The position numbers were made by a program, and so were the translations under genes. From assembly GCA_947631295.1 (NCBI GenBank), contig CANRKU010000002.1, positions 10,274 to 74,273 on the forward strand: DNA of 64,000 bases. The letters are read 5' to 3'. Shown here in pieces: positions 19,155 to 53,048 of the stretch. Numbering within the stretch: position 1 is the stretch's first letter; the number at the start of each line of letters is the position of its first letter. The stretch comes from an uncultured Bacilli bacterium (GTDB lineage: Bacteria > Bacillota_I > Bacilli_A > RF39 > UBA660). The notes under the pieces are model-generated. The model did no database searches. It was not told the origin of the DNA and worked only from the letters and a program-made list of their open reading frames with translations.

Positions 19155-19441
19155 ATTAATTCCCTCTCTCTATTAAAAATTTAATTGAAAAAATTAGATA
19201 TAATTTTTCAAAAGTTATATAACTATTGATTTAAATTTATTGTGTTGATTATACCATAAATTGAATTAAAAAACAATTTTACAACAAACTAAGGAGTAAA
19301 AATTTTTTATAGTGTACATCAATTATAATACTACAAAATAATAACAGTGAAACATACAATCGTTTCCTTGTTTTGTTTATAAAATAGTGATAAAATATAG
19401 TATTGAAATTCATTGAATATTGTAATAGTAAGGAGGTAATT

Positions 19442-21400
19442 ATGTTTAATTTAGTATCCAAATATCAGGCATCTGGAGATCAACCACAGGCTATTGATAA
19501 ATTAGTAGATGGTATTCAAAATGGAACGAAACATCAAGTTTTATTAGGAGCAACTGGAACTGGTAAAACATTTACGATTGCGAATGTAATTCAAAAAGTA
19601 AATAAGCCAACTTTAGTGCTAGCGCATAATAAGACACTAGCTGGGCAACTTTATAGTGAATTAAAAGAATTATTTCCTAATAATCATGTCTGTTATTTCG
19701 TTAGTTATTACGATTATTATCAACCGGAAGCATATGTTCCATCTACCGATACATATATTGAAAAAGATTCGTCTATTAATGATGAAATAGATGAACTGCG
19801 TCACTATGCTACAAGTTCCTTATTATCCTATGATGATGTTATTGTTGTAGCAAGTGTTAGTTGTATCTATGGTATTGGAGAAGTAGAAGAATATAAAAAT
19901 AAAATGTTAAGTCTAGGAGTAGGAGATTCTGTAGAACGAAATACCATTATGACTAAATTAGTTGAAATGATGTATGAAAGAAATGATTTTGATTTTAAAC
20001 GTGGAACTTTTCGAGTAAAAGGGGATGTTTTAGAAATTATTCCAACCAATCAAAATACCAAAGGATATCGCATTGAATTCTTTGGAGATGAAATTGATCG
20101 TATTAGTGAAATTGATACATTAACAGGAACAGTCCTACAAAATAAAAAAACAGTTAGTATTTTTCCAGCCAGTCACTTTGTTACCAGTGATGAAAAATTA
20201 ATAGAAGCCATTAAAAGAATTAAATTAGAACTGATAGATAGAATTCAATATTTTAAAGATAATAATAAACTATTAGCTGCTGAGAGAATAGAACAAAGAA
20301 CAAACTATGATTTAGAAATGCTAACAGAAACAGGTTTCTGTCGTGGTATTGAAAATTATTCTAGACATATGGCTTTACGTGGAGAAGGGGAAACACCTAC
20401 TACATTAATGGATTTCTTTCCTAAAGATTTTTTATTAGTTGTGGATGAATCACATGTTACATTACCACAAGTTAGAGGAATGTATAATGGAGATAGAGCA
20501 CGTAAAATGAATTTAGTAGATTATGGATTTAGACTTCCTAGTGCTTTAGATAATAGACCACTTAAGTTTGATGAATTCGAGAGTAAAATCAATCAAGCAA
20601 TTTATGTATCAGCAACACCTGGTGATTATGAGCTTGAAAAGACCAATCATACTTATATTGAACAGATTATTCGTCCAACAGGATTATTAGATCCAACCAT
20701 AGAAGTGAGACCAAGTGAAGGACAAATAGATGATTTAATTGGTGAAATTAAAGACCGAATTGAAAAAAATGAAAGAACTTTGATTACAACCCTTACAATT
20801 CGTATGGCAGAAGAATTAACCAACTATTTAAAAGACATTGATATTAAAGTCGCTTATTTGCATAGTGAGATTAAAACTTTAGAAAGAATGAAAATCATTC
20901 GAGATTTACGTTTAGGAAAATATGATTGTATTGTGGGAATTAATTTACTACGTGAAGGTTTAGATATTCCGGAAGTTAGTTTAATTGCGATACTAGATGC
21001 TGATAAAGAAGGATTTTTACGAAGCGAAAGAAGTTTAATTCAAACCATTGGACGTTGTGCTAGAAATGCTAGTGGACACTGTATTATGTATGCTGATAAA
21101 ATAACAGAAAGTATGGAACATGCTATTAATGAGACTATGCGTCGTCGTAGTGTTCAGGAAAAATACAATGAAGAACATGGTATCATTCCACAAACCATTC
21201 ATAAAGAAATCAGAGATTTAATTAGTAATGTAGAAGAAGAAAAAGATAATAAAAAACCAAAGAAACAAGATAAGAAAGAATTATTAAAAATGATAGAAGA
21301 AATTGAGGAAGAAATGAAAAAAGCAGCTAAAGATTTAGATTTTGAAAGAGCTATGGAATTAAGGGATGCTTTATTTGAATTAAAAGCAGAAATAGAATGA
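19442..21400 (+). CDS. uvrB: excinuclease ABC subunit B
   Basis: AAGGAGGT RBS then ATG 19442; the track start 19403 is too early. Walker A GATGTGKT, the helicase motif DESH, and the C-terminal UVR coiled-coil segment ([29 protein letters not shown]). Confidence 0.95.
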
Positions 21401-22263
21401 AAAAGTTTAAAAAAATTTATATTGAAATTACGAATATCTGCAATTTATCCTGTTCTTTCTGTAGCCAAGATCATCGAATGAAAGAAAATATTACGCTAGA
21501 AAAAATGGAAAAAATTCTTCAAAAAATTAATCCTTATACAGATTATCTTTATCTTCATGTAAAAGGAGAACCTCTTCTTCATCCACAATTAAAAGAAATT
21601 TTAGATTTATGTAGTAAATATCATAAACAAGTCAATATTACGACCAATGGTACCTTGGTAAAAGATAGATGTGAGATATTAAAACATCCAGCAATCAGAC
21701 AAATTAATATTTCTTTGCATAGTGAAAATGAAAAACAAAATTATTTAGAAGAAATCTTTGAAACAGTGGATATCTTAAAACAGAAAATTATTGTTTATCG
21801 TTTTTGGACTATGGATGATAATAAATTAAATCAAAAATCCACTGAAATTGTGAATAAAATAATTGCATATTATCAGTTATCCCCAGAATTTGTGGATAAA
21901 GTAAAAAAAGAAAATCATATTAAAATGAGAGAAAATTTATATATCGATAAGAAAAATGAATTTATTTGGCCAAGCTTAGCAAATGATTATGTTTCTGATA
22001 GGGGATACTGTTATGCTTTAAAAGACCAATTAGCTATTTTAGTAGATGGTACCATTGTACCCTGTTGCTTAGATAGTAATGGAATCATTATTTTAGGAAA
22101 TATTTATGAACAATCACTAGAGGAAATTATAAATAGTAGTCGATTTCAAAAAATTAAAGAGGGATTTGAGAATAGAAAAATGGTGGAAGATTTGTGTAAA
22201 CACTGTAGTTTTAAAGATATACTTACTAAAAATTTCCAATCCAGAACGAGAAAAAATAATTGA
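21397..22263 (+). CDS. radical SAM domain protein with C-terminal SPASM/twitch-like Cys cluster
   Basis: CNLSCSFC (CxxxCxxC) at residues 15-22 and a GEPLL motif; C-terminal CCLDSNG..C..CKHCSF cysteines. The ATGA overlap with the uvrB stop suggests translational coupling. Substrate unknown. Confidence 0.65.
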
Positions 22264-22328
22264 CAACAATCGATTTCTATAATAGAATAAATCTCCTAGT
22301 TAATCATTAGGAGACAGGGGATTTGAAA

Positions 22329-22628
22329 ATGGGAATTCATAAAAAAGTATATATTGGTCATGTTGAAACTATTAATCCAGATGCCAGTGAATTGATTTCT
22401 CCAGTAGAGTCAAAAGTAGTAGCATTAAAGTTAATAGGATTTGATCATGTTAAGAAAATACCTCAATATAAGCCATTGAGAAAATATAAGGAATATTATA
22501 AAATAATGAGGGTAGAAGAAAGACCTTTGGTTAGTAGTTTAGGCAGCTTTGTAGGAGATAAACAAATTGATTATGCTTTACGAAAAACGGGAAAAGAAGA
22601 AGTAAAAAAATTAAAGAAAAGTGCTTAA
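22329..22628 (+). CDS. hypothetical small basic protein
   Basis: ORF downstream of the rSAM gene (the track starts at TTG 22323; ATG 22329 is likelier). No Cys and no recognisable domain. An upstream hairpin (22292-22313) overlaps its RBS. Confidence 0.4.
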   Translation: MGIHKKVYIGHVETINPDASELISPVESKVVALKLIGFDHVKKIPQYKPLRKYKEYYKIMRVEERPLVSSLGSFVGDKQIDYALRKTGKEEVKKLKKSA

Positions 22629-22726
22629 ATAATCTATCTAATGGATGGATTATTTTTAAAAATACTTTTCAAACAAATGTTTTACTGATATAATAATGTT
22701 GTTTTTAAAGTAATTTTAAAAAAAAG

Positions 22727-22735
22727 TGGTATAAT
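22727..22735 (+). promoter_or_regulatory. candidate extended -10 promoter element upstream of uvrA
   Basis: TGgTATAAT, 23 nt upstream of the uvrA start; no good -35 hexamer. Confidence 0.3.
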
Positions 22736-22758
22736 AACAGACAGAAAAGGTGATGTAT

Positions 22759-25566
22759 ATGGATAAAATTATTATTAAAGGTGCTAGAGAAAATAATTTA
22801 AAGAATGTAGATCTAGAACTTCCTAAAAATAAATTAATTGTAATGACAGGAGTATCAGGAAGTGGAAAATCATCACTTGCTTTTGATACAATTTATGCGG
22901 AAGGTCAAAGAAGATATGTTGAAAGTTTATCAGCTTATGCTAGACAATTTTTAGGAGGTACTGAAAAACCAGATGTAGATTCTATTGAAGGGTTATCTCC
23001 TTCTATTAGTATTGATCAAAAAACAACTTCTAAAAATCCACGTTCAACTGTTGGAACCGTTACGGAAATTTATGATTATTTAAGACTATTATTTGCTCGT
23101 ATTGGTATTCCTTATTGTCCGAATCATCATGTACCTATTTCATCCCAAAGTATCGATGAAATTGTGGATAAAATTATAGAAAATGAAGAAGGAACCAAAT
23201 TAATTATCATGGCACCTGTTGTTCATGGTGAGAAAGGAACACATAAAGATTTATTAGAAGATTTAAGAAAAGAAGGATATGTCAGAGTTCGTATTAATGG
23301 AGAAACTTTTGATTTAAGTGAAGAAATTAAGCTTGAAAAAAATAAAAAAGATAATATTGATGTCATTATTGATCGAATTGTTTTAAAAGAGGGTATTAGA
23401 AGCCGTTTAACAGAATCTGTTGAACAAGCAATTAAACTTTCTAAAGGAAAAGTCATTATTGACTATGTTGGAAACAAAGAAATAGTTTATTCTGAAAATT
23501 TTGCCTGTCCTTACTGTGATTTTTCTTTGCCAGAATTAGAACCTAGAATGTTTAGTTTTAATGCTCCATTCTGTAGTTGTCCAGACTGTAAAGGATTAGG
23601 TGTCAAATTAAAAATGGATCCTGATCTAGTAGTACCAGATGGTAGAAAAAGCTTGAGTGGAGGCGCAATTAAAACATTAACAGATGACCCTGAAGCACTT
23701 GACTATAAAAGATTAGAATGTTTATGTAATCATTATAAAATTGATATGAATAAACCTTTTGAAAAATTAACGAAAAAAGAACAGAACTATATTTTATATG
23801 GTAGCGATGAAATTATTCACTTTCAATACCAATCTAAAAGTGGTAATCTTTATAATCAAAAGGATTATTATGAAGGAATTATTAATAATCTAGAACGAAG
23901 ATATATGGAGACAAGCAGTACTTGGATTCGTGAATGGTTAGAAAATTATATGTTGGAGACAGTTTGTGAGACTTGTCATGGTGCTAGACTTCAAGATAAT
24001 GTATTATCTGTTTTAGTAGGAAAGAAAAATATTTATGAAGTAACTTGTATGAGTATTAAAGATTTGATTCCTTTTTTTGAAAATTTAAAATTAACCAAAT
24101 CTCAACAAGAAATTTCCACTTTACTAATCAAAGAAATTTTGGCACGATTAAATTTCTTAAAAAATGTTGGACTAGAATATCTAACACTTAGCCGTTCTGC
24201 AGGAACATTGTCTGGTGGTGAGGCTCAAAGAATTAGACTTGCTACTCAAATTGGTTCAAAGTTAACAGGTGTTTTATATGTTTTAGATGAACCAAGTATT
24301 GGATTACATCAAAAAGATAATGCTAAATTAATTGACTCCCTTTTAGAGATGAGAGATTTAGGAAATACTTTAATTGTGGTTGAACATGATACAGATACTA
24401 TGTTAGCTAGTGATTATTTGGTAGATGTAGGACCTGGAGCTGGTGATCATGGTGGGGAAATTATCGCTTGTGGAACACCTGAAGAAGTCATGAAAAACGA
24501 AAAAAGTATTACAGGCCGATATTTAAGTGGGAAAGAATGTATTGAAATCCCAAAAAATAGAAGAAAAGGTACAAAAAAATATATTGAAATCAAAGGAGCT
24601 CAAGAAAATAACTTAAAAAATATTGATGTTAAGTTTCCACTTGGCACATTTACTTGTGTAACAGGGGTATCTGGTAGTGGAAAAAGTAGTCTAGTAAATC
24701 AAATATTATGTAATGCTGCTTATAGTACCATTTATAAATCAAAAGTAAAACCTGGTAAACATAAAAAAATTACAGGATTAGACCAACTTGATAAAGTAGT
24801 AGAAATCTCTCAAAATCCTATTGGTAGAACCCCTCGTAGTAATCCAGCAACTTATACAGGAGTTTTTGATGAAATTAGAGATTTATTTACCACAACCAAA
24901 GAAGCAAAAATGTACGGTTTTGGAAAAGATAGATTTTCATTTAATGTAAAAGGTGGTAGATGTGAAGCTTGTCGTGGAGATGGAGTCAAAAAAATAGAAA
25001 TGCATTTTTTACCAGATGTTTATATTCCTTGTGAAGTATGTCATGGAACTAGGTATAATAGTGAAACATTAAGAATAAAATATAAAGACAAAAATATTGC
25101 GGAAGTATTAGATATGCGTGTTAGTGAAGCATTAGAATTCTTCGAAAATGTTCCTAAAATCAAATCAAAACTGCAAGTATTAGAAGATGTAGGAATTGGT
25201 TACATTAAATTAGGACAAAGTGCTACTACGCTATCCGGTGGAGAAGCAGGAAGAGTAAAACTTGCCAAAGAACTTCAAAAGAAACCAACTGGTAAAACGC
25301 TTTACATTATGGATGAACCAACAACGGGACTTCATTCAGCAGATATTAAGAGATTACTTGCAATTATTCAAAAAATAGTAGATAATAAAGATACGGTAGT
25401 TGTGATTGAACACAACCTTGATGTTATAAAATGTGCTGATTATATTATTGACCTTGGACCAACTGGTGGCGATGGAGGAGGACAAGTAATAGCAACAGGT
25501 ACTCCAGAAGAAATAGCTAAAGTCAAAGAATCAGCAACAGGGGAATTTTTAAAGAAAATACTGTAA
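22759..25566 (+). CDS. uvrA: excinuclease ABC subunit A
   Basis: AAAAGGTG RBS then ATG 22759. Two ABC modules (GVSGSGKSS x2, LSGGE x2) and zinc-finger Cys clusters (CPYCDF..CPDC; [14 protein letters not shown]). Confidence 0.95.
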
Positions 25567-44421: not shown

Positions 44422-44437
44422 GATAGGATGTGTGTTT

Positions 44438-47400
44438 ATGAAAAAGAAAAAATCAAAGAAAAAGAAGATAAAAAAAATATCACAAACAACTCATAAAAAA
44501 ATAACACCAGCATTTGATCAAACTGAACAAGAAGAAAAAACCAGTAAAACAATAACAGAAACGCACAATCAAGATATAGTAGAAGAAAAGAAAAAAAAGA
44601 AAAAGAAGATTATTTTTCTATTACTTTTATTCCTATTAGTATTTTGCATATTTAGTATTAGTATCACATATGGAAATAGTATTTATGATGCTATTGAAGA
44701 ACAAGTAATAGAAGTATTAAATCTCAAAAAACCATCTGCTCCAGAAATAACTGGTGGTAGTGGAGAATGGGCTAAAGAAAGATTAATTAAAGTATCTAAA
44801 GATGCAACTACCAAAAATGGCTTAGATTATTACGAATATTGTATTAGTAATAGTAAAAATCTAAAAAATTGTAATTGGAAAAAAACGACAACTAAAAATA
44901 CTAAAGTAATGGAAACAGGAATTCATTATGTTGTTTTTAGAGGAGTAGATAAAGAAGGAAGAAAGGGATATCACTCTAATATAGAAATAGTATATATCGA
45001 CAATAATAATCCTATTATAGAAAATATTACTGTTGATAAGATTACAACGACAAGTATTGATATTAAAGTCAGTGCAAGAGACGAACATAGTGGTATTTAT
45101 AATTATTTTTATAGTTTAGATGGAATAAACTATGAAAAGGGAAATCCAAATTATACGTATCAAAATTTAGAAAAAGAAAAGGAATATACAATTTATGTTA
45201 AAGTAGACGACAAGGTTGGAAATACTACTTTTTTAAGTATGCAAGTAAAGACATTGCCAGAAGATGATAAAAATTCAACCCATGAATCAACAACCAGTCC
45301 AAATCCAACAACCAGTCCAAATCCAACGACTAGCCCAAATCCAACAACCAGTCCAAGTCCAACGACTAGCCCAAGTCCAACGACCAGTCCAAGTCCAACA
45401 ACTAGTCCAAATCCAACGACCAGTCCAAGTCCAACAACTAGTCCAAATCCAACAACCAGTCCAAGTCCAACGACTAGTCCAGATCCAACAACCAGTCCAA
45501 GCCCAACAACCAGTCCAAGCCCAACAACTAGCCCAAGTCCAACAACCAGTCCAAGTCCAACGACTAGCCCAAGTCCAACAACCAGTCCAGATCCAACGAC
45601 TAGCCCAGATCCAACGACTAGCCCAGATCCAGGAAAAGATGATGAGAAAGAGGAAGAAGATACTGAAATTCCAAAGATTAACTTAGATCAAGTACCATTA
45701 GAATTTCCATATGGAAGTAATTATGCTTTGCCAAGTTACTATCACTTTGGACCTAGTGGTGGTGAAGTACAATGTACTGTAGAAGGCGAAATATATACCG
45801 ATACTTCTACTTTAAAAGCAGGAACCCATGTTATTGAATGTATTGCTAAAGGAAATAATGGAATTAATGTTGGAGTATCCAAGAAAGTAAAAGTAACAGT
45901 GGAAGAAGGAATAGATGAAGCTTGGGATGGATGGATACGCTTAAATTTATATTATCCAGAAGATTCTACTAACTGGCAATGGAGAATAGGAAAAGAAGGC
46001 GAAATTCGTGACGGATATGATAATACTGGATGGCAAGACTATACAGGACCAATTTTAGTAAAACTAGAAGATGTTGATGATGTTTATATTCGATATGATT
46101 TAAATGGTGAAACTGTAATTATAGCCCCTAATGGTAAGACAGTAGTAGATATAGAACCTAATAAATATAGTTTGTTATCTGATGAAACAACAAAAGTAAC
46201 AATTATATATGATAAAGACGCAGAAGTAAAAGAATATAAGATAGGCTCTGGCGATTGGCAAGAATATACTAAACCATTTGTAGTAGGTAAAAATACATTA
46301 ATAGAAGCTAGAGTAAGCAAAAAAATAGATGTATATGATAGCGATGGTAATAGACTATATACAAAAACAGTAAGTGAGAGTGATAGCGTATTTATAGGAG
46401 AAATAGTAGAACATGGTAGTAGTAAAGGAACTATCAATGGTGGATCAGGATCTTTTGAATCGGAAACAGTTCCAAATGGAAATACTGTTACCAGACCTAG
46501 CTATGACGCAAGACCATCAGAATATTTATCAGGACCCAATATTAATATTAGTGCAGAACAGATTTCTGAAAATATAGCAGTAAATATTACTACGGAATAT
46601 GATGCAAGAGAAATTTACTACAAGATTGGAAATGGTTCTTATCAATTGTACACAGGAAGCTTTACTGTTACCAATAATACAACGATTAGTAGTTATTATA
46701 TTAGAGAAAGTGATGGTAGAATAAGTAGTACAAGCTATAGATATATTAATAATATATATAGAGGAGAAAAACCATATGTCAGAATTAATGCTATACCAGA
46801 TAATTACCTAACAGAGTCCTTAGATAGTGTAGAAGTAACAATTAGTGGAAGCAACTATGATCAATTAGAATATAGTCTAGATGGACATATTTATTATAAA
46901 TATATAAATCCAATTATCATCACAGATAGTACTACTGTATATGCAAAAGGAATAAATCAATATGGTGTTACCATAGAAAAATTATTAATTACTACTAAAA
47001 CACCAGCGATAAAAAAAGATAATTTAGATATTAGTATCTTATGTAATCCAGATAATTCAAAGGATTTGATAAATCATACTACAGTTACGATTATTTATGA
47101 CAATAGAGCTACTAAAAAATACTATAAATTAGGAAAAGATTCTGAATATCAAGAATATACTGGACCATTTGAAGTATATGAAAATACAACTGTATATGCT
47201 TATGCTATAGGAAAAAATTTAGAAGGAGAAACAAAACGAGGAATAGATTTTTTGACAACAGGAATTATGGAACCAATTATAAAAGTAACTCCTACTACAG
47301 CATCTAATACAGTAATGGTTAATATCGAATTTGATAAAAACGCAAATACAAAATATTATCAAATAAATGGTGGAGAAAGACTTTATTATACAGGACCATT

Positions 47401-50400
47401 TGAGATATATGAAAATAGTGAGATTTATGCCTATAATAGTAATGCTTTAAATTATGAAAAAGATAGTACTTATATGATTGATAATATTGTAGGTCTGCCT
47501 AATTATTTAATTATTGATAAAGGGAAATATTATATTATTAAATTAAATTATCCATCTATATCTAATATTGAAGATAGAGAATATAAATACGGCAAAAATG
47601 GTGTATGGAAAACTTATGATGAAAAGGGAATTTTATTAATTAAGTCAGAATATCAACAAGAATATATGACTGGAAAATATGATGGTATTGAAGTAGAAGA
47701 TAAAAATGGCAATAAAGTAATATTTACAGATCATTATTATGTAACTGATACTCCATTTGAAAAAATTATGGAAGACATTTATATGAGATGGAGTAATACT
47801 AAATTAAAGGCCCCAGAGATAGTAATAAATGAAGAAAACTACACAAAAGAAGTAGAAGTCGGAATTTTATATTCTAATCTATTAACCAAAAAATTATATA
47901 AAATTGTTAATGCAAATGGTTTAGATACAGGCTGGTTAGAATATACTGGACCATTTAAGGTAAATGAAAATAATACTGTAGTTTATGCCAAGGGAACTAC
48001 TCAAAGTGAGATTACTACTGAAACTTCATACCGAATTATCACCAATATTGATTCAATTAATCCTGAAATTACAGTACAGGGAGATTTTGAGACTCCAAAA
48101 CGTGAAGTAATTGTTACAGTCTCAGCAACCGATAATATGATGCTGAGAGAAGTTAAATGGGAAAAAGGGGATCAAAGCAAAGAATATTTTCTTAGAAATG
48201 GTAATAGTATAAAAAATCAAGGTACCTTTACTGTAACGGAAAATGGAAAATATACAATTTATGCAGTTGACCAAGCTGGAAATGAAAGTGTACAAGTTAT
48301 TGAAATTACCAATATTGATAAAGATGCACCGCATATTATCATTCATGTTTTAACAGAAAAGCTAGGAACTAAGGCAGAAATTAGTATTGATTACGGAGAT
48401 AGTGACATTAAGGAATTTAAAATTGGAGAAAATGGAACGTATCAACCATATACAGAAAATATTACATTAAGCTCATATGATGTATACCCATTGAAAAATG
48501 AAAACGGAAGTATCACACTATATGCAAAAGGAACAGATATTGCAGGAAATACAGCAGAAGTTAGTGAGGTTATTTACATATTAGACTTTGATTTTCCACA
48601 TAGCCCTATTATTTACCCAAGCAATGGTTATCCAGAATTAACAGAAAATGGAATGATACTAGGAACAGAGAGCTACATAGTATTTGATAATACCAGAGAT
48701 GATATTATGAATTATTATAAGATTGATAATGGAAACTGGACTTTATATACCAATCCAATTACCATTGTTAGTGGAAAAATAGAAGCTAAAAGCGTAAAAA
48801 TTGGTAGTGGTTTAACAGTAACTAGTACAGCAGAGGTAAGTATACCAAGTGATGCAGTAGCAGAAAATACATATGATAAAAATATGGAAACATTCGAAAC
48901 CATTCCTAAAAATACCAAAAAGAAATTTACTTTAGACAATAATTTAGAAAATAGAAAAATAAGATTTTACTTGAATAATGAGCCAAATATAAATTCCTAT
49001 ATTAAAGTCTATGCAAAAAATAATACAGAATTAGTAACGATACCTTTAACTGAAATAGTAACATTGCTTGATATACCAACTGATGGGTATATTGTAGAAA
49101 TATATTCTGGAGATAGTAACTTAGAAATAAAAGAAATTAATTTAAGAGATAGTAATCAAGATAGAAAAGTAAAGAATCCTATCATCACAGTTAATGATAA
49201 TAGTTGGACAACAGAAAAAGAAATAAGTATTATTTATCCAGAAGGATATACCAATCAGTATAGTACTGATAGTGGTGAGACATGGCAAACATATACGGAT
49301 TCATTTAAAGTATCAAAATTTACAACTATTATAGCTAGAGCATTAGAAGAAGAAAAAGTTGTATCTGCAAGTAGTATGCAAATTACTAAAATAGACACTG
49401 AATCTCTAAATATAAAATTAGATTTACCTAATATTATTCAAGTAGGGTATAGTATTGAATTACCAACTTCTTATTATTTGGGACCTTCCGGTGGAAAGAC
49501 AGAATGTATAGCTAATGACCAAGTTATTACGAATACCAATGAATTAGGTATAGGAGAATATCAAATTACATGTACTATAACAAGCAACATTGGACCTACC
49601 AAAAGTATAACTAAATCATTAAAAGTCATAGAGGTTCCTGATTATGGAGAAGAAAGTATTTTAAAAGCTTTATCTAGAGATGACATTGTTACTGGAAAAT
49701 ATAATTTAAAAATAGTAGATCAAAATTATCCAGTACATGTATACGTATATGATGGTAATCAACATTGGACAAGTGAAGATAATACGATATTTGGGGATGC
49801 ACAAGATGTGGCAACGGCGAATACTAATGCCCAGAATATGGTAATTGTGAAAGTAAATGGAGATTTGGAAATTGATGAAGGAGTAACAGTAAAACCATAT
49901 TCCACTGAATACGGAGGACCGAAAGGATTTACACTATATGTAACAGGAAAATTAACGAATAAAGGAACAATCGATAATTCCCATGGAGCAAAAGCACCAG
50001 GAGAGAATGTATACTTATGGAAAAATGCTGATGGAAGTTATGAAATGGTACCAGCAACAGGAGGCTCAGGAGCTAATCCCGGAGGAAGTATTGGAGCCGG
50101 AAATAACGGAGGATCAGGATCTAACCGTCAAACTGGAGGTGGAGGTTCAGGAGCTATTTCTGGTAAAGGCTCAGGAAGTGCAGGAACCAGCTATTCAGGA
50201 GGAACCGGTGGTGGTGGAAATGGCGGAACTGCCGGTACAGCGAATGGAGGAGCAGGAGGAATAGGATATGCACCAACCTACCCAGGTGGAGGCGGAGCCG
50301 GAAATCCAGGCGGGGCCGGAGCATCAAGCTCATCAAAAGGAAGTAATGGAACCGGAGGATTATTAGTAATTTATGCCAATGAATATGAAAATACAGGAAA

Positions 50401-52297
50401 TATAACTGCAAATGGATCCAATGGTGGAAGCCAACGAGTTGCAGGAGGATCTTCTGGTGGAGGAAGTATCAATATCTTTACCAATCAACCTACTGGAATT
50501 AATCAATTAGGAATTATTACGAGTACAAAATATCAAGAGATTAAAGGAAAAACATCTAATATAGGGGGAGCAAGATTATTATCTGGAACAAGTGCTGGAG
50601 GAGCAGGAGGAAATGGAACACTAAATATTGGAGAAATTAGAAATGGCCAGTATTATGATTTAACAGAAATAATTGAACAGGATAAAGTAACCTATAAAGA
50701 TAGTGTAACTTTAAAAGGAGATAGTATTTTATCTATACTAAGTAATCCAGAATTGAAACCAGGATATTGGTACTTAAGTATAACTGGATTAGAAGAAAAT
50801 ATTGAATATCCAACTCATGTATATGTATATGATGGTAATCAACATTGGACAAGTGAAGATAATACGATATTTGGAGATGCACAAGATGTAGCAACAGCAA
50901 ATACCAATGCCCAAAATATGGTAATTGTAAAAGTAAATGGAGATTTGGAAATTGATGAAGGAGTAACAGTAAAACCATATTCCACTGAATACGGAGGACC
51001 GAAAGGATTTACACTATATGTAACAGGAAAATTAACGAATAAAGGAACAATCGATAATTCCCATGGAGCAAAAGCACCAGGAGAGAATGTATACTTATGG
51101 AAAAATGCTGATGGAAGTTATGAAATGGTACCAGCAACAGGAGGCTCAGGAGCTAATCCCGGAGGAAGTATTGGAGCCGGAAATAACGGAGGATCAGGAT
51201 CTAACCGTCAAACTGGAGGTGGAGGTTCAGGAGCTATTTCTGGTAAAGGCTCAGGAAGTGCAGGAACCAGCTATTCAGGAGGAACCGGTGGTGGTGGAAA
51301 TGGCGGAACTGCCGGTACAGCGAATGGAGGAGCAGGAGGAATAGGATATGCACCAACCTACCCAGGTGGAGGCGGAGCCGGAAATCCAGGCGGGGCCGGA
51401 GCATCAAGCTCATCAAAAGGAAGTAATGGAACCGGAGGATTATTAGTAATTTATGCCAATGAATATGAAAATACAGGAAATATAACTGCAAATGGATCCA
51501 ATGGTGGAAGTCAATGGGTTGCAGGAGGATCTTCTGGTGGAGGAAGCATTAATATCTTTACCTACGAATCTGTTAATAGTCAGGGTAGTGTTAAAGCAAA
51601 TGGTGGTTCAAGATTAAAAAGTGGAACAGATGCTGGAGGAGCAGGAGGAAATGGAACCATTACATTTAGACAAATTGAACTTCATTCTCAAGTCGATAAT
51701 AACCAAAATAATCTTTCAAATTCTATGAATTCTGTACCTAAAATCACAATTTCTGATTATAATTGGTCTAGTAAGAAGATAGTAAATATTACTTATCCTC
51801 AAGAACAATATATCAATGAATATAGTTTGGATTTAGGCACTACTTGGCTTCTATATAGTGATTCCATTACTGTATCAGAAGCAACAACAATTTTTGCAAG
51901 AAGCTTAAAAGATGGTAAAATAGTATCAAGCAGTAGTTTTCAAATCACCAAGATTGATTCTACCGAACCTACTATTGAACTTGATATTCCAGATAAAATA
52001 TTAAAAGGTAGCGATTATCAATTACCTACTAATTATTGGGTAGATAATACAAAATCTGGCGGAAGCGCTGTATGCAAAATCAATGATAGTGTAATCAATA
52101 ACACTAGTAGCTTAGATATTGGTAGCTATGAAATTATTTGCACAGTTACTACAGGAGTAGGTAAAGATAAAATTATTACCAAAAGTATAGAAATATATCA
52201 GGAAGAAGATATTCTTCCTCCTGATAATTCTACAAATATTCAAGGAAATCCATCTCAAACGGAAAATAATGCGAGTGAATTAAGCGGAGGTGACTAA
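44438..52297 (+). CDS. giant (2619-aa) N-terminally membrane-anchored surface protein with TSP-repeat stalk, multiple Ig-like (CHB_HEX_C-like) domains and duplicated Gly-rich module
   Basis: The track starts at GTG 44432; the likely start is ATG 44438 (AGGATG RBS). Lys-rich N-terminus then a signal-anchor helix IIFLLLLFLLVFCIFSISI. 19 TTSP(N/S/D)P repeats. About ten ~80-aa repeats of the pattern YYK(I/L)G.G..Q.YTGPF.V. Two near-identical Gly-rich modules. No LPXTG. Confidence 0.8.
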   Translation: MKKKKSKKKKIKKISQTTHKKITPAFDQTEQEEKTSKTITETHNQDIVEEKKKKKKKIIFLLLLFLLVFCIFSISITYGNSIYDAIEEQVIEVLNLKKPSAPEITGGSGEWAKERLIKVSKDATTKNGLDYYEYCISNSKNLKNCNWKKTTTKNTKVMETGIHYVVFRGVDKEGRKGYHSNIEIVYIDNNNPIIENITVDKITTTSIDIKVSARDEHSGIYNYFYSLDGINYEKGNPNYTYQNLEKEKEYTIYVKVDDKVGNTTFLSMQVKTLPEDDKNSTHESTTSPNPTTSPNPTTSPNPTTSPSPTTSPSPTTSPSPTTSPNPTTSPSPTTSPNPTTSPSPTTSPDPTTSPSPTTSPSPTTSPSPTTSPSPTTSPSPTTSPDPTTSPDPTTSPDPGKDDEKEEEDTEIPKINLDQVPLEFPYGSNYALPSYYHFGPSGGEVQCTVEGEIYTDTSTLKAGTHVIECIAKGNNGINVGVSKKVKVTVEEGIDEAWDGWIRLNLYYPEDSTNWQWRIGKEGEIRDGYDNTGWQDYTGPILVKLEDVDDVYIRYDLNGETVIIAPNGKTVVDIEPNKYSLLSDETTKVTIIYDKDAEVKEYKIGSGDWQEYTKPFVVGKNTLIEARVSKKIDVYDSDGNRLYTKTVSESDSVFIGEIVEHGSSKGTINGGSGSFESETVPNGNTVTRPSYDARPSEYLSGPNINISAEQISENIAVNITTEYDAREIYYKIGNGSYQLYTGSFTVTNNTTISSYYIRESDGRISSTSYRYINNIYRGEKPYVRINAIPDNYLTESLDSVEVTISGSNYDQLEYSLDGHIYYKYINPIIITDSTTVYAKGINQYGVTIEKLLITTKTPAIKKDNLDISILCNPDNSKDLINHTTVTIIYDNRATKKYYKLGKDSEYQEYTGPFEVYENTTVYAYAIGKNLEGETKRGIDFLTTGIMEPIIKVTPTTASNTVMVNIEFDKNANTKYYQINGGERLYYTGPFEIYENSEIYAYNSNALNYEKDSTYMIDNIVGLPNYLIIDKGKYYIIKLNYPSISNIEDREYKYGKNGVWKTYDEKGILLIKSEYQQEYMTGKYDGIEVEDKNGNKVIFTDHYYVTDTPFEKIMEDIYMRWSNTKLKAPEIVINEENYTKEVEVGILYSNLLTKKLYKIVNANGLDTGWLEYTGPFKVNENNTVVYAKGTTQSEITTETSYRIITNIDSINPEITVQGDFETPKREVIVTVSATDNMMLREVKWEKGDQSKEYFLRNGNSIKNQGTFTVTENGKYTIYAVDQAGNESVQVIEITNIDKDAPHIIIHVLTEKLGTKAEISIDYGDSDIKEFKIGENGTYQPYTENITLSSYDVYPLKNENGSITLYAKGTDIAGNTAEVSEVIYILDFDFPHSPIIYPSNGYPELTENGMILGTESYIVFDNTRDDIMNYYKIDNGNWTLYTNPITIVSGKIEAKSVKIGSGLTVTSTAEVSIPSDAVAENTYDKNMETFETIPKNTKKKFTLDNNLENRKIRFYLNNEPNINSYIKVYAKNNTELVTIPLTEIVTLLDIPTDGYIVEIYSGDSNLEIKEINLRDSNQDRKVKNPIITVNDNSWTTEKEISIIYPEGYTNQYSTDSGETWQTYTDSFKVSKFTTIIARALEEEKVVSASSMQITKIDTESLNIKLDLPNIIQVGYSIELPTSYYLGPSGGKTECIANDQVITNTNELGIGEYQITCTITSNIGPTKSITKSLKVIEVPDYGEESILKALSRDDIVTGKYNLKIVDQNYPVHVYVYDGNQHWTSEDNTIFGDAQDVATANTNAQNMVIVKVNGDLEIDEGVTVKPYSTEYGGPKGFTLYVTGKLTNKGTIDNSHGAKAPGENVYLWKNADGSYEMVPATGGSGANPGGSIGAGNNGGSGSNRQTGGGGSGAISGKGSGSAGTSYSGGTGGGGNGGTAGTANGGAGGIGYAPTYPGGGGAGNPGGAGASSSSKGSNGTGGLLVIYANEYENTGNITANGSNGGSQRVAGGSSGGGSINIFTNQPTGINQLGIITSTKYQEIKGKTSNIGGARLLSGTSAGGAGGNGTLNIGEIRNGQYYDLTEIIEQDKVTYKDSVTLKGDSILSILSNPELKPGYWYLSITGLEENIEYPTHVYVYDGNQHWTSEDNTIFGDAQDVATANTNAQNMVIVKVNGDLEIDEGVTVKPYSTEYGGPKGFTLYVTGKLTNKGTIDNSHGAKAPGENVYLWKNADGSYEMVPATGGSGANPGGSIGAGNNGGSGSNRQTGGGGSGAISGKGSGSAGTSYSGGTGGGGNGGTAGTANGGAGGIGYAPTYPGGGGAGNPGGAGASSSSKGSNGTGGLLVIYANEYENTGNITANGSNGGSQWVAGGSSGGGSINIFTYESVNSQGSVKANGGSRLKSGTDAGGAGGNGTITFRQIELHSQVDNNQNNLSNSMNSVPKITISDYNWSSKKIVNITYPQEQYINEYSLDLGTTWLLYSDSITVSEATTIFARSLKDGKIVSSSSFQITKIDSTEPTIELDIPDKILKGSDYQLPTNYWVDNTKSGGSAVCKINDSVINNTSSLDIGSYEIICTVTTGVGKDKIITKSIEIYQEEDILPPDNSTNIQGNPSQTENNASELSGGD
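45290..45631 (+). repeat. 19 tandem 18-bp repeats encoding TTSP(N/S/D)P
   Basis: Read directly in the DNA (acaaccagtccaaatcca and variants). It also produces a spurious alternative-frame ORF (45264..45686). Confidence 0.9.
49728..50483 (+). repeat. copy 1 of near-identical 756-bp intragenic tandem duplication (period 1080 bp)
   Basis: 49741-50483 matches 50821-51563 with only a handful of mismatches in the first ~130 bp, then apparently identical sequence for ~600 bp. Confidence 0.9.
50808..51563 (+). repeat. copy 2 of near-identical 756-bp intragenic tandem duplication
   Basis: See copy 1. Both copies are in frame (1080 = 360 codons) and encode HVYVYDGNQHW...GGSGANPGG...GGLLVIYANEYENTGNITANGSNGG. 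Confidence 0.9.
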
Positions 52298-52916: not shown

Positions 52917-53048
52917 TTTTAACTGTGTGGCTGCTTAGATGTGTGAGGTTGCTGATACGCCAGGATAAGTTGTTAAAATTTATTTAGGTAATTCAGGTTT
53001 TTACACGGAGCAAGTCTATACTAGATATAGGCGAAGGGAGGATTCGAA

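Follow-up and report, generated by a model that had tools for sequence, protein, structure and literature searches.

A BtrN-like twitch radical-SAM enzyme in the uvrB transcription unit of an uncultured Bacilli bacterium belongs to a family found repeatedly beside DNA-repair genes

We analysed a 64,000-nucleotide (nt) stretch of DNA from an uncultured Bacilli bacterium (hereafter the window; GenBank assembly GCA_947631295.1, contig CANRKU010000002.1, positions 10,274 to 74,273 of the forward strand), in which a gene for a radical S-adenosylmethionine (radical-SAM) enzyme of 288 amino acids (aa) lies between the excision-repair genes uvrB and uvrA. The first-pass annotation of this locus had described the enzyme gene and a small open reading frame (ORF) behind it as inserted between uvrB and uvrA, and had suggested either a DNA- or nucleotide-modifying enzyme or a peptide maturase acting with the small ORF. 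The protein is a BtrN-like twitch radical-SAM enzyme, and its gene is a fixed, long-standing member of the uvrB transcription unit in the lineage of the window. The features of the locus are as follows.

19442..21400, + strand: uvrB, 652 aa; NCBIfam UvrB model, 1079 bits against a cut-off of 743
21397..22263, + strand: gene of the twitch-type radical-SAM enzyme, 288 aa; Pfam Radical_SAM at residues 9-132, SPASM at 205-270
22260..22288, + strand: promoter-like site TTGACA-17-TAGAAT of the small ORF, 11/12 matches
22292..22314, + strand: conserved hairpin TCTCCTA/TAGGAGA at or near the 5' end of the small-ORF transcript, from folding, conservation and covariation
22329..22628, + strand: small basic orphan protein, 99 aa, pI 9.7, no cysteine; alternative TTG start at 22323
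22627..22655, + strand: terminator-like hairpin, 13-bp stem followed by a U-rich tract, -11.4 kcal/mol, z -5.4
22686..22735, + strand: two extended -10-like elements before uvrA, TGATATAAT (22686-22694) and TGGTATAAT (22727-22735)
22759..25566, + strand: uvrA, 935 aa from ATG 22759; NCBIfam UvrA model, 1544 bits against a cut-off of 1147

The uvrB gene was assigned the ATG at 19442, which has AAGGAGG 7 nt upstream; the ORF finder had placed the start at the TTG at 19403. Its TGA stop (21398-21400) is shared with the start codon of the radical-SAM gene as ATGA, and this overlap, the 288-aa length and the CNLSCSFC motif are all present in the sequence as first annotated. Further downstream of uvrA, NCBIfam identified an Lgt gene. 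The window genome is small, with a GC content of 25-30%.

Pfam PF04055 matches the 288-aa protein with 59 bits against a cut-off of 29.5, and the modelled core is a partial TIM barrel with GGE-like and ribose motifs. Within CNLSCSFC, residues C15, C19 and C22 form a CX3CX2C motif that is invariant in all homologues aligned; these cysteines are predicted to bind the SAM-cleaving [4Fe-4S] cluster, and the enzyme is accordingly expected to cleave SAM reductively. Alignments of 22 and 74 homologues show the same strict invariance for KGEPL and NITTNG, which are the usual SAM-binding motifs, and for two C-terminal elements, C205-x12-G-x4-C223-C224 and C267-x2-C270, which hold the five C-terminal cysteines (C205, C223, C224, C267 and C270).

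The C-terminal cysteine cluster had been called twitch- or SPASM-like, and it is the twitch half of this label that holds. The SPASM element CX9-15GX4C is present as the invariant C205-x12-G218-x4-C223. The CX2CX5CX3C block and the last cysteine of the seven-cysteine SPASM motif are missing, and no aligned homologue has a cysteine after C267-x2-C270. Since only four BtrN-type ligand cysteines and one extra cysteine are present, the protein is a twitch enzyme with one auxiliary cluster and not a full SPASM enzyme. Structure comparison agreed with this assignment: the AlphaFold2 model, with a predicted local distance difference test score (pLDDT) of 81.6, was nearest to solved twitch enzymes, with BtrN, BlsE, DesII, SpeY and AbmM as the top matches, and a profile search of PDB sequences returned BtrN first (E 4.5e-15). 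BtrN, the 2-deoxy-scyllo-inosamine (DOIA) dehydrogenase of the butirosin pathway (PDB 4M7S/4M7T), is the prototype twitch radical-SAM enzyme. In the HMMER alignment, C205, C223 and C267 are matched by three cysteines of the BtrN twitch domain, namely a single cysteine, the cysteine of a PC pair and the first cysteine of a CxxC; the partner of C270 lies one residue beyond the aligned region and was placed by the CxxC spacing. We take the aligned twitch-domain cysteines of BtrN to be the auxiliary-cluster ligands of its published structure, and predict the same role for C205, C223, C267 and C270. The window enzyme differs from BtrN in the extra invariant C224, where BtrN has a phenylalanine at the equivalent position, and the identity between the two proteins is 23%.

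The enzyme falls outside the well-characterised housekeeping families. The best curated NCBIfam match was the tungsten-cofactor maturase (69.5 bits against a cut-off of 380), and the best 25 of 64 matches all lay well under their cut-offs and spanned mainly the N-terminal core. MoaA, the tungsten-cofactor maturase, anSME, NirJ/Ahb, PqqE and viperin were rejected because no NCBIfam model reached its curated cut-off. PADLOC and PHROGs returned generic radical-SAM similarity for the enzyme and no match for the small ORF. Neither sequence nor structure placed the enzyme in the spore photoproduct lyase family. Orthology to BtrN as a DOIA dehydrogenase was rejected in view of the 23% identity and of the lack of aminoglycoside genes in any of the 68 genomic context classes described below; in contrast to btrN, genes of this family stand alone on the chromosome or sit in repair operons.

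Oxygen-independent two-electron oxidation with an auxiliary cluster is established for both BtrN and anSME. Like the window enzyme, anSME and other full SPASM enzymes carry, behind a radical-SAM core, a C-terminal Fe-S domain matched by Pfam SPASM, and, by analogy with anSME and BtrN, the window enzyme probably performs the same chemistry with its auxiliary cluster as electron acceptor. The anSME precedent also raises the idea that a repair protein, UvrB or UvrC for example, is modified by the enzyme after translation, as sulfatases are by anSME. BtrN is clearly the better match, and we know of no such post-translational modification of Uvr proteins; we consider this explanation very unlikely.

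A word-indexed search found over 7,800 clusters of homologues at 90% identity; nearly all are unnamed or carry just the label "radical SAM/SPASM domain-containing protein". An exhaustive hidden Markov model search of 50%-identity representatives gave 780 clusters at E <= 1e-30, and the 150 best-scoring of these representatives were all single-domain proteins of 245-346 aa, with no domain fusion. Every named host is an anaerobe. The hosts include Clostridium (botulinum, sporogenes, manihotivorum and others), Anaerocolumna, Alkaliphilus, Tissierella, Proteiniborus, Natranaerovirga, Ilyobacter/Fusobacteriaceae, Selenomonadales, Desulfobulbaceae and Chitinivibrionales, together with many metagenome-assembled genomes (MAGs) of uncultured gut Bacilli or Mycoplasmatota. 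A literature search returned no description of this twitch family, nor of a radical-SAM gene within uvr operons. On these sequence comparisons, the proteins appear to form a distinct, large and unnamed twitch family whose recurrent association with DNA-repair genes is previously unreported.

For the genomic context, 80 genome and 80 metagenome loci (cited as L plus a number) were fetched, their ORFs called, and the neighbouring genes clustered and annotated. The loci were retrieved by query-derived peptide patterns, and because close relatives are over-represented in such a retrieval, the count was made by context class and not by locus. A gene could be called in 151 loci, which fell into 68 context classes, as follows.

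Class a, 32 loci: uvrB, radical-SAM gene, variable genes, uvrA
Class b, 18 loci: stop of the radical-SAM gene overlapping the uvrC start by 4 or 17 nt
Class c, one locus (L113): UvrA-like fragment, DoxX-like membrane-protein gene on the opposite strand, radical-SAM gene, UvdE gene 353 nt downstream
Class d, two loci (L118, L126): recG stop overlapping or nearly abutting the radical-SAM start
Class e, 16 loci: four-cysteine TSCPD protein directly upstream, usually with a MurG-like glycosyltransferase of family 28 (GT28) downstream
Remaining classes, various loci: lone gene among unrelated neighbours

Class a, to which the window belongs, comprises 27 genome and 5 metagenome loci joined by a uvrB directly upstream or by a common downstream neighbour, and it is monophyletic in a neighbour-joining tree. 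Where uvrB and the radical-SAM gene are adjacent, the gap between them is usually -4 to +2 nt. The simplest members (L021-L023) consist of uvrB, the radical-SAM gene and uvrA alone, and in L017, which has no uvrA downstream, the radical-SAM gene still adjoins uvrB. The word "inserted" is therefore misleading for what is an old and stable operon member. The interval between uvrB and uvrA otherwise holds changing cargo (L003/L004, L008-L010/L012, L014-L016, L018/L020/L024/L030), including an ABC transporter (595 aa), the orphan c16 (153-159 aa), a bacterial PH-domain protein, the 221-aa orphan c59 and a YfiH/Cu-oxidase_4-like protein whose stop overlaps the radical-SAM start; the radical-SAM gene is its sole constant. 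Separately, L030 carries a desulfoferrodoxin-family gene (2298-2675) near uvrB.

These data also bear on whether the arrangement could be an artefact, a pseudogene or a recent mobile insertion, a concern that the first-pass annotation had tied to its absence from relatives. The order uvrB, radical-SAM gene, small ORF, uvrA, with an identical radical-SAM protein, was found in three independent assemblies of sequencing runs, and the radical-SAM gene shares the base composition of its neighbours (GC 25-30% across the region), which therefore excludes an assembly artefact or a recent foreign insertion. The arrangement further recurs in the 32 related loci, the ORF is intact with all catalytic motifs invariant, and none of the ORFs flanking it in the window was seen to encode an integrase, though repeats were not searched for. 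Nothing was found in favour of this whole group of explanations, and we assign next to no probability to it.

Class b is the sister group of class a, and its members are labelled Mycoplasmatota or Bacilli. The UvrC proteins encoded there have the GIY-YIG, UvrC RNase H and HhH domains. In class c, the UvdE of L113 matched PF03851 with E 3e-103. In class d, the recG stop overlaps the radical-SAM start in L118, and recG ends about 6 nt upstream in L126. More loosely placed repair genes were seen as well: in L096-L099 recG instead lies 1.7 kb downstream of the radical-SAM gene, and L057 has uvrB on the opposite strand, 2.2 kb upstream.

Several side observations concern these loci. In the uvrC-linked clade, uvrC is followed by a conserved 234-aa protein (cluster c9; L026 8539-9243) with a faint Bud32-kinase-like match of 25.7 bits. 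In L113, a metagenome contig on which the arrangement spans 5-3727, the upstream UvrA-like C-terminal fragment is about 45% identical to true UvrA and is possibly a paralogue. In L025, tblastn found a radical-SAM gene with no intact ORF, and in L036 uvrC is split into two frames; either case could be a pseudogene or a MAG sequencing error.

Outside the repair-linked clades, the only conserved partners were the TIGR03905 TSCPD protein and the MurG-like GT28 of one gut clade; the rest varies. The TSCPD protein (TIGR03905 family, 81-89 aa) lies touching to 13 nt upstream of the radical-SAM gene in class e (L129-L166, 16 loci) and in L110, and the loci linked to it form a human-gut clade. Elsewhere, TSCPD domains are known at the C-terminus of class II ribonucleotide reductases, and the protein could be a redox partner of the radical-SAM enzyme. 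In one clade (L042, L048, L059 and L060), the radical-SAM gene is preceded at a distance of 24-36 nt by a gene of the desulfoferrodoxin family (superoxide reductase-like, about 122 aa). Neighbours in the remaining classes include MatE, permeases, an ArsC-family protein, RsgA, a pseudouridine synthase, Ppnp and uridine kinase.

The small ORF, annotated earlier as a 100-aa frame, is a real gene with 65 homologous clusters, all in near relatives; the homologues start at ATG 22329 and not at TTG 22323, which gives 99 aa. The predicted protein contains no cysteine, as had been recorded. It is conserved from end to end (motifs KVYIGHVETIN, SKVVALKL, YKPLRKYGEYYK and TGKxEVKxLKK) and is predicted to be folded (pLDDT 88.9). 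It occurs in only part of class a, at 29-67% identity across L001-L012, with a distant form in L011 and L013, the latter found by clustering; it is absent from the rest of the uvrB-linked clade and from about 120 other loci. In four relatives another gene (c16) lies between the radical-SAM gene and the small ORF.

Two regulatory elements of this gene had escaped the first-pass annotation, namely a promoter-like site in front of it and a terminator-like hairpin behind it. TTGACA-17-TAGAAT is the best promoter-like site within 19100-22900, its -35 hexamer overlaps the radical-SAM stop codon, and both TTGACA and the -10 hexamers (TA(A/G)AAT) are invariant or nearly so across ten species. The terminator-like hairpin was matched in folding by 0/200 shuffles; the consensus scan overlooked it because its stem is AT-rich.

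The hairpin before the start codon, already noted for the window, is conserved and extends one base further than described, to 22314. Its folding z-score is -2.4, with 2/200 shuffles folding as well, and it is kept in 10 related species, where the share of paired cells is 90%, compared with 48-59% for slid controls, and where both partners differ in 4 of the pairs. Across relatives it takes a conserved 9-bp form (TCTCCTAAT/ATTAGGAGA) that lies a few bases after the promoter and contains a Shine-Dalgarno (SD)-like sequence, with TCCC/GGGGGA variants in L001 and L007. An embedded ribosome-binding site had also been proposed. The SD-like AGGAGA is indeed present in the 3' arm; it lies 15 nt before the conserved ATG in the window and 15-16 nt before it in most species, and a second purine-rich stretch, GGGGA (22317-22321), appears better placed for ribosome binding. 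In L001 and L007 the hairpin arm itself is a correctly spaced SD sequence. The 5' stem may either stabilise the mRNA or mask the ribosome-binding site. As a side observation, L003 and L004 carry a start-stop pair (ATG TGA) after AGGAGA, directly before the real ATG.

These findings weigh on the suggestion that the enzyme matures the 99-aa protein, or a peptide derived from it, as part of a system for peptides that are made ribosomally and then modified post-translationally (RiPPs). What recommended it was a small ORF next to a radical-SAM gene. Yet the ORF is confined to part of the uvrB-linked clade, is separated from the enzyme gene by another gene in four relatives, has its own conserved promoter and terminator, and encodes a folded protein conserved over its full length that has no cysteine and no visible leader/core pattern. 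No other conserved small ORF was found as an adjacent precursor. On the enzyme side, Pfam found no RiPP recognition element (RRE) or PqqD-like peptide-recognition domain in the 288-aa protein, and there is no room for an N-terminal RRE because the protein begins with the radical-SAM core, with CX3CX2C from residue 15; anSME likewise has no RRE domain. The small ORF is thus a separate orphan gene with its own promoter, neither substrate nor obligate partner of the enzyme, and we regard a RiPP system as extremely improbable.

Upstream of uvrA, the extended -10 element reported earlier was recovered by the consensus scan, and direct reading of the sequence revealed a second; both are of the TGnTATAAT type. 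Because the terminator-like hairpin and these promoter-like elements lie between the small ORF and uvrA, uvrA in the window genome is probably transcribed separately. This gives three likely transcription units: uvrB with the radical-SAM gene; the small ORF, possibly also reached by read-through from upstream; and uvrA. Rfam detected no riboswitch or leader RNA in the uvrB-uvrA interval. Elsewhere in the window, an S10-Clostridia ribosomal-protein leader (52928-53034; Rfam 36.6 bits, gathering score 35.1) lies upstream of an apparent ribosomal-protein operon, and three very long ORFs occupy the + strand (472-5565, 1697 aa; 9309-12755, 1148 aa; 44432-52297, 2621 aa).

We propose, tentatively and at just under an even chance, that the enzyme is a radical-SAM oxidoreductase that acts on damaged DNA or nucleotides alongside excision repair under anoxia. 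This weight is given because three different excision-repair genes and recG recur as its most tightly coupled neighbours. In the proposed mechanism, the reduced SAM cluster would cleave SAM to a 5'-deoxyadenosyl radical, which would take a hydrogen from a substrate C-H next to a heteroatom; the auxiliary cluster would then take the second electron. The outcome would be a two-electron oxidation that needs no O2, like those of BtrN and anSME. The substrate would be a damaged DNA or nucleotide species, and the enzyme would work beside excision repair in strict anaerobes, a niche in which O2- or light-dependent repair enzymes cannot act. The overlaps with uvrC and recG and the adjoining uvdE thus strengthen the DNA- or nucleotide-modifying option of the first-pass annotation: the repair-gene context points to an oxygen-independent role in DNA damage, without proving it.

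In favour of this proposal, a rough Poisson estimate, which takes about 4 genes in 2,500 to be nucleotide excision repair or UvdE genes and allows about 123 slots for adjacent genes beyond the original class, predicts about 0.2 further repair neighbours; 2 were seen (uvrC and uvdE; P ~0.02), and recG is an additional one. The estimate is post hoc, and the kinship between the lineages of classes a and b weakens it. Several results weigh against the proposal. Both large clades linked to repair consist of gut bacteria with reduced genomes, in which operons are often mixed, and they are sisters of each other; the uvrB-uvrA interval holds plainly unrelated cargo, so the site tolerates passengers. 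The family has a median pI of 7.3, which is not basic, and no nucleic-acid-binding signature, the charge itself being uninformative. No exact Cheo/LexA box (GAAC-N4-GTTC) was found in the window, where one-mismatch sites are no commoner than chance, and no Cheo box was found upstream of the radical-SAM gene in about 165 loci. The GAAC-N4-GTTC matches at +601 to +694 within the gene were rejected as LexA boxes; they arise from the codons of DGTVVPC, a conserved motif.

Most context classes (Clostridium, Anaerocolumna, Ilyobacter, Tissierellales and others) contain the gene alone among unrelated, variable neighbours, and the nearest solved structures act on sugars, cyclitols or sugar nucleotides (BtrN, BlsE, DesII, SpeY and AbmM) and not on DNA. 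Both facts, like the unrelated interval cargo and the lack of a LexA box, also fit a housekeeping twitch radical-SAM oxidoreductase that has no link to repair and merely shares transcripts with uvrB, uvrC and recG in compact genomes. The substrate of such an enzyme might be a metabolite (a sugar, nucleoside or nucleotide sugar), or it might be RNA or a protein that the enzyme modifies. Glycosyltransferases adjoin the gene in three context classes, including a MurG-like GT28 in 11 loci, and genes of nucleoside or RNA metabolism lie nearby (YfiH-like, Ppnp, uridine kinase, a YfbR-like HD protein and pseudouridine synthase). However, three glycosyltransferase-neighbour classes are roughly what chance would give in view of glycosyltransferase abundance, by a rough estimate, and no biosynthetic cluster stands beside the gene at any locus. 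Nor does this explanation account for the fact that the tightest couplings, in which start and stop codons overlap, are those to uvrB, uvrC and recG, or for the uvdE locus. We see in it a serious possibility, somewhat below an even chance and almost as probable as the repair proposal.

A bolder form of the repair proposal, which we think unlikely, would make the family a second kind of radical-SAM DNA-repair enzyme, one that serves strict anaerobes without O2 or light and either reverses a lesion directly or processes it by oxidation. Such an enzyme might remove N-alkyl groups in an AlkB-like manner, abstracting a hydrogen and then passing an electron to the twitch cluster, or might open a sugar-base cyclo-lesion, and it could act alone or pass its product to UvrABC or UvdE. 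The functional precedent is spore photoproduct lyase (SplB), which repairs DNA by radical-SAM chemistry without light or O2; to our knowledge, DNA repair has so far been established for no other radical-SAM enzyme. Another uncharacterised radical-SAM family, the TIGR03916-type "DNA modification/repair radical SAM protein", has about 400 aa, is paired with a uracil-DNA glycosylase-like protein and was assigned to repair by neighbourhood only. By this description it differs from the window family in family, size and partner, and TIGR03916 is not among the best 25 of 64 NCBIfam matches of the window enzyme.

O2-dependent repair enzymes such as AlkB-type dioxygenases are closed to strict anaerobes, and photolyases, which require light, are of no use to gut organisms. 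A family coupled repeatedly to uvrB, uvrC, recG and uvdE is a concrete and testable candidate for anaerobic damage handling, and since it occurs in Clostridium botulinum, C. sporogenes and many gut taxa, cultivable carriers exist for genetics. If the link to repair proves incidental, the family would still be a compact BtrN-like twitch enzyme worth assigning.

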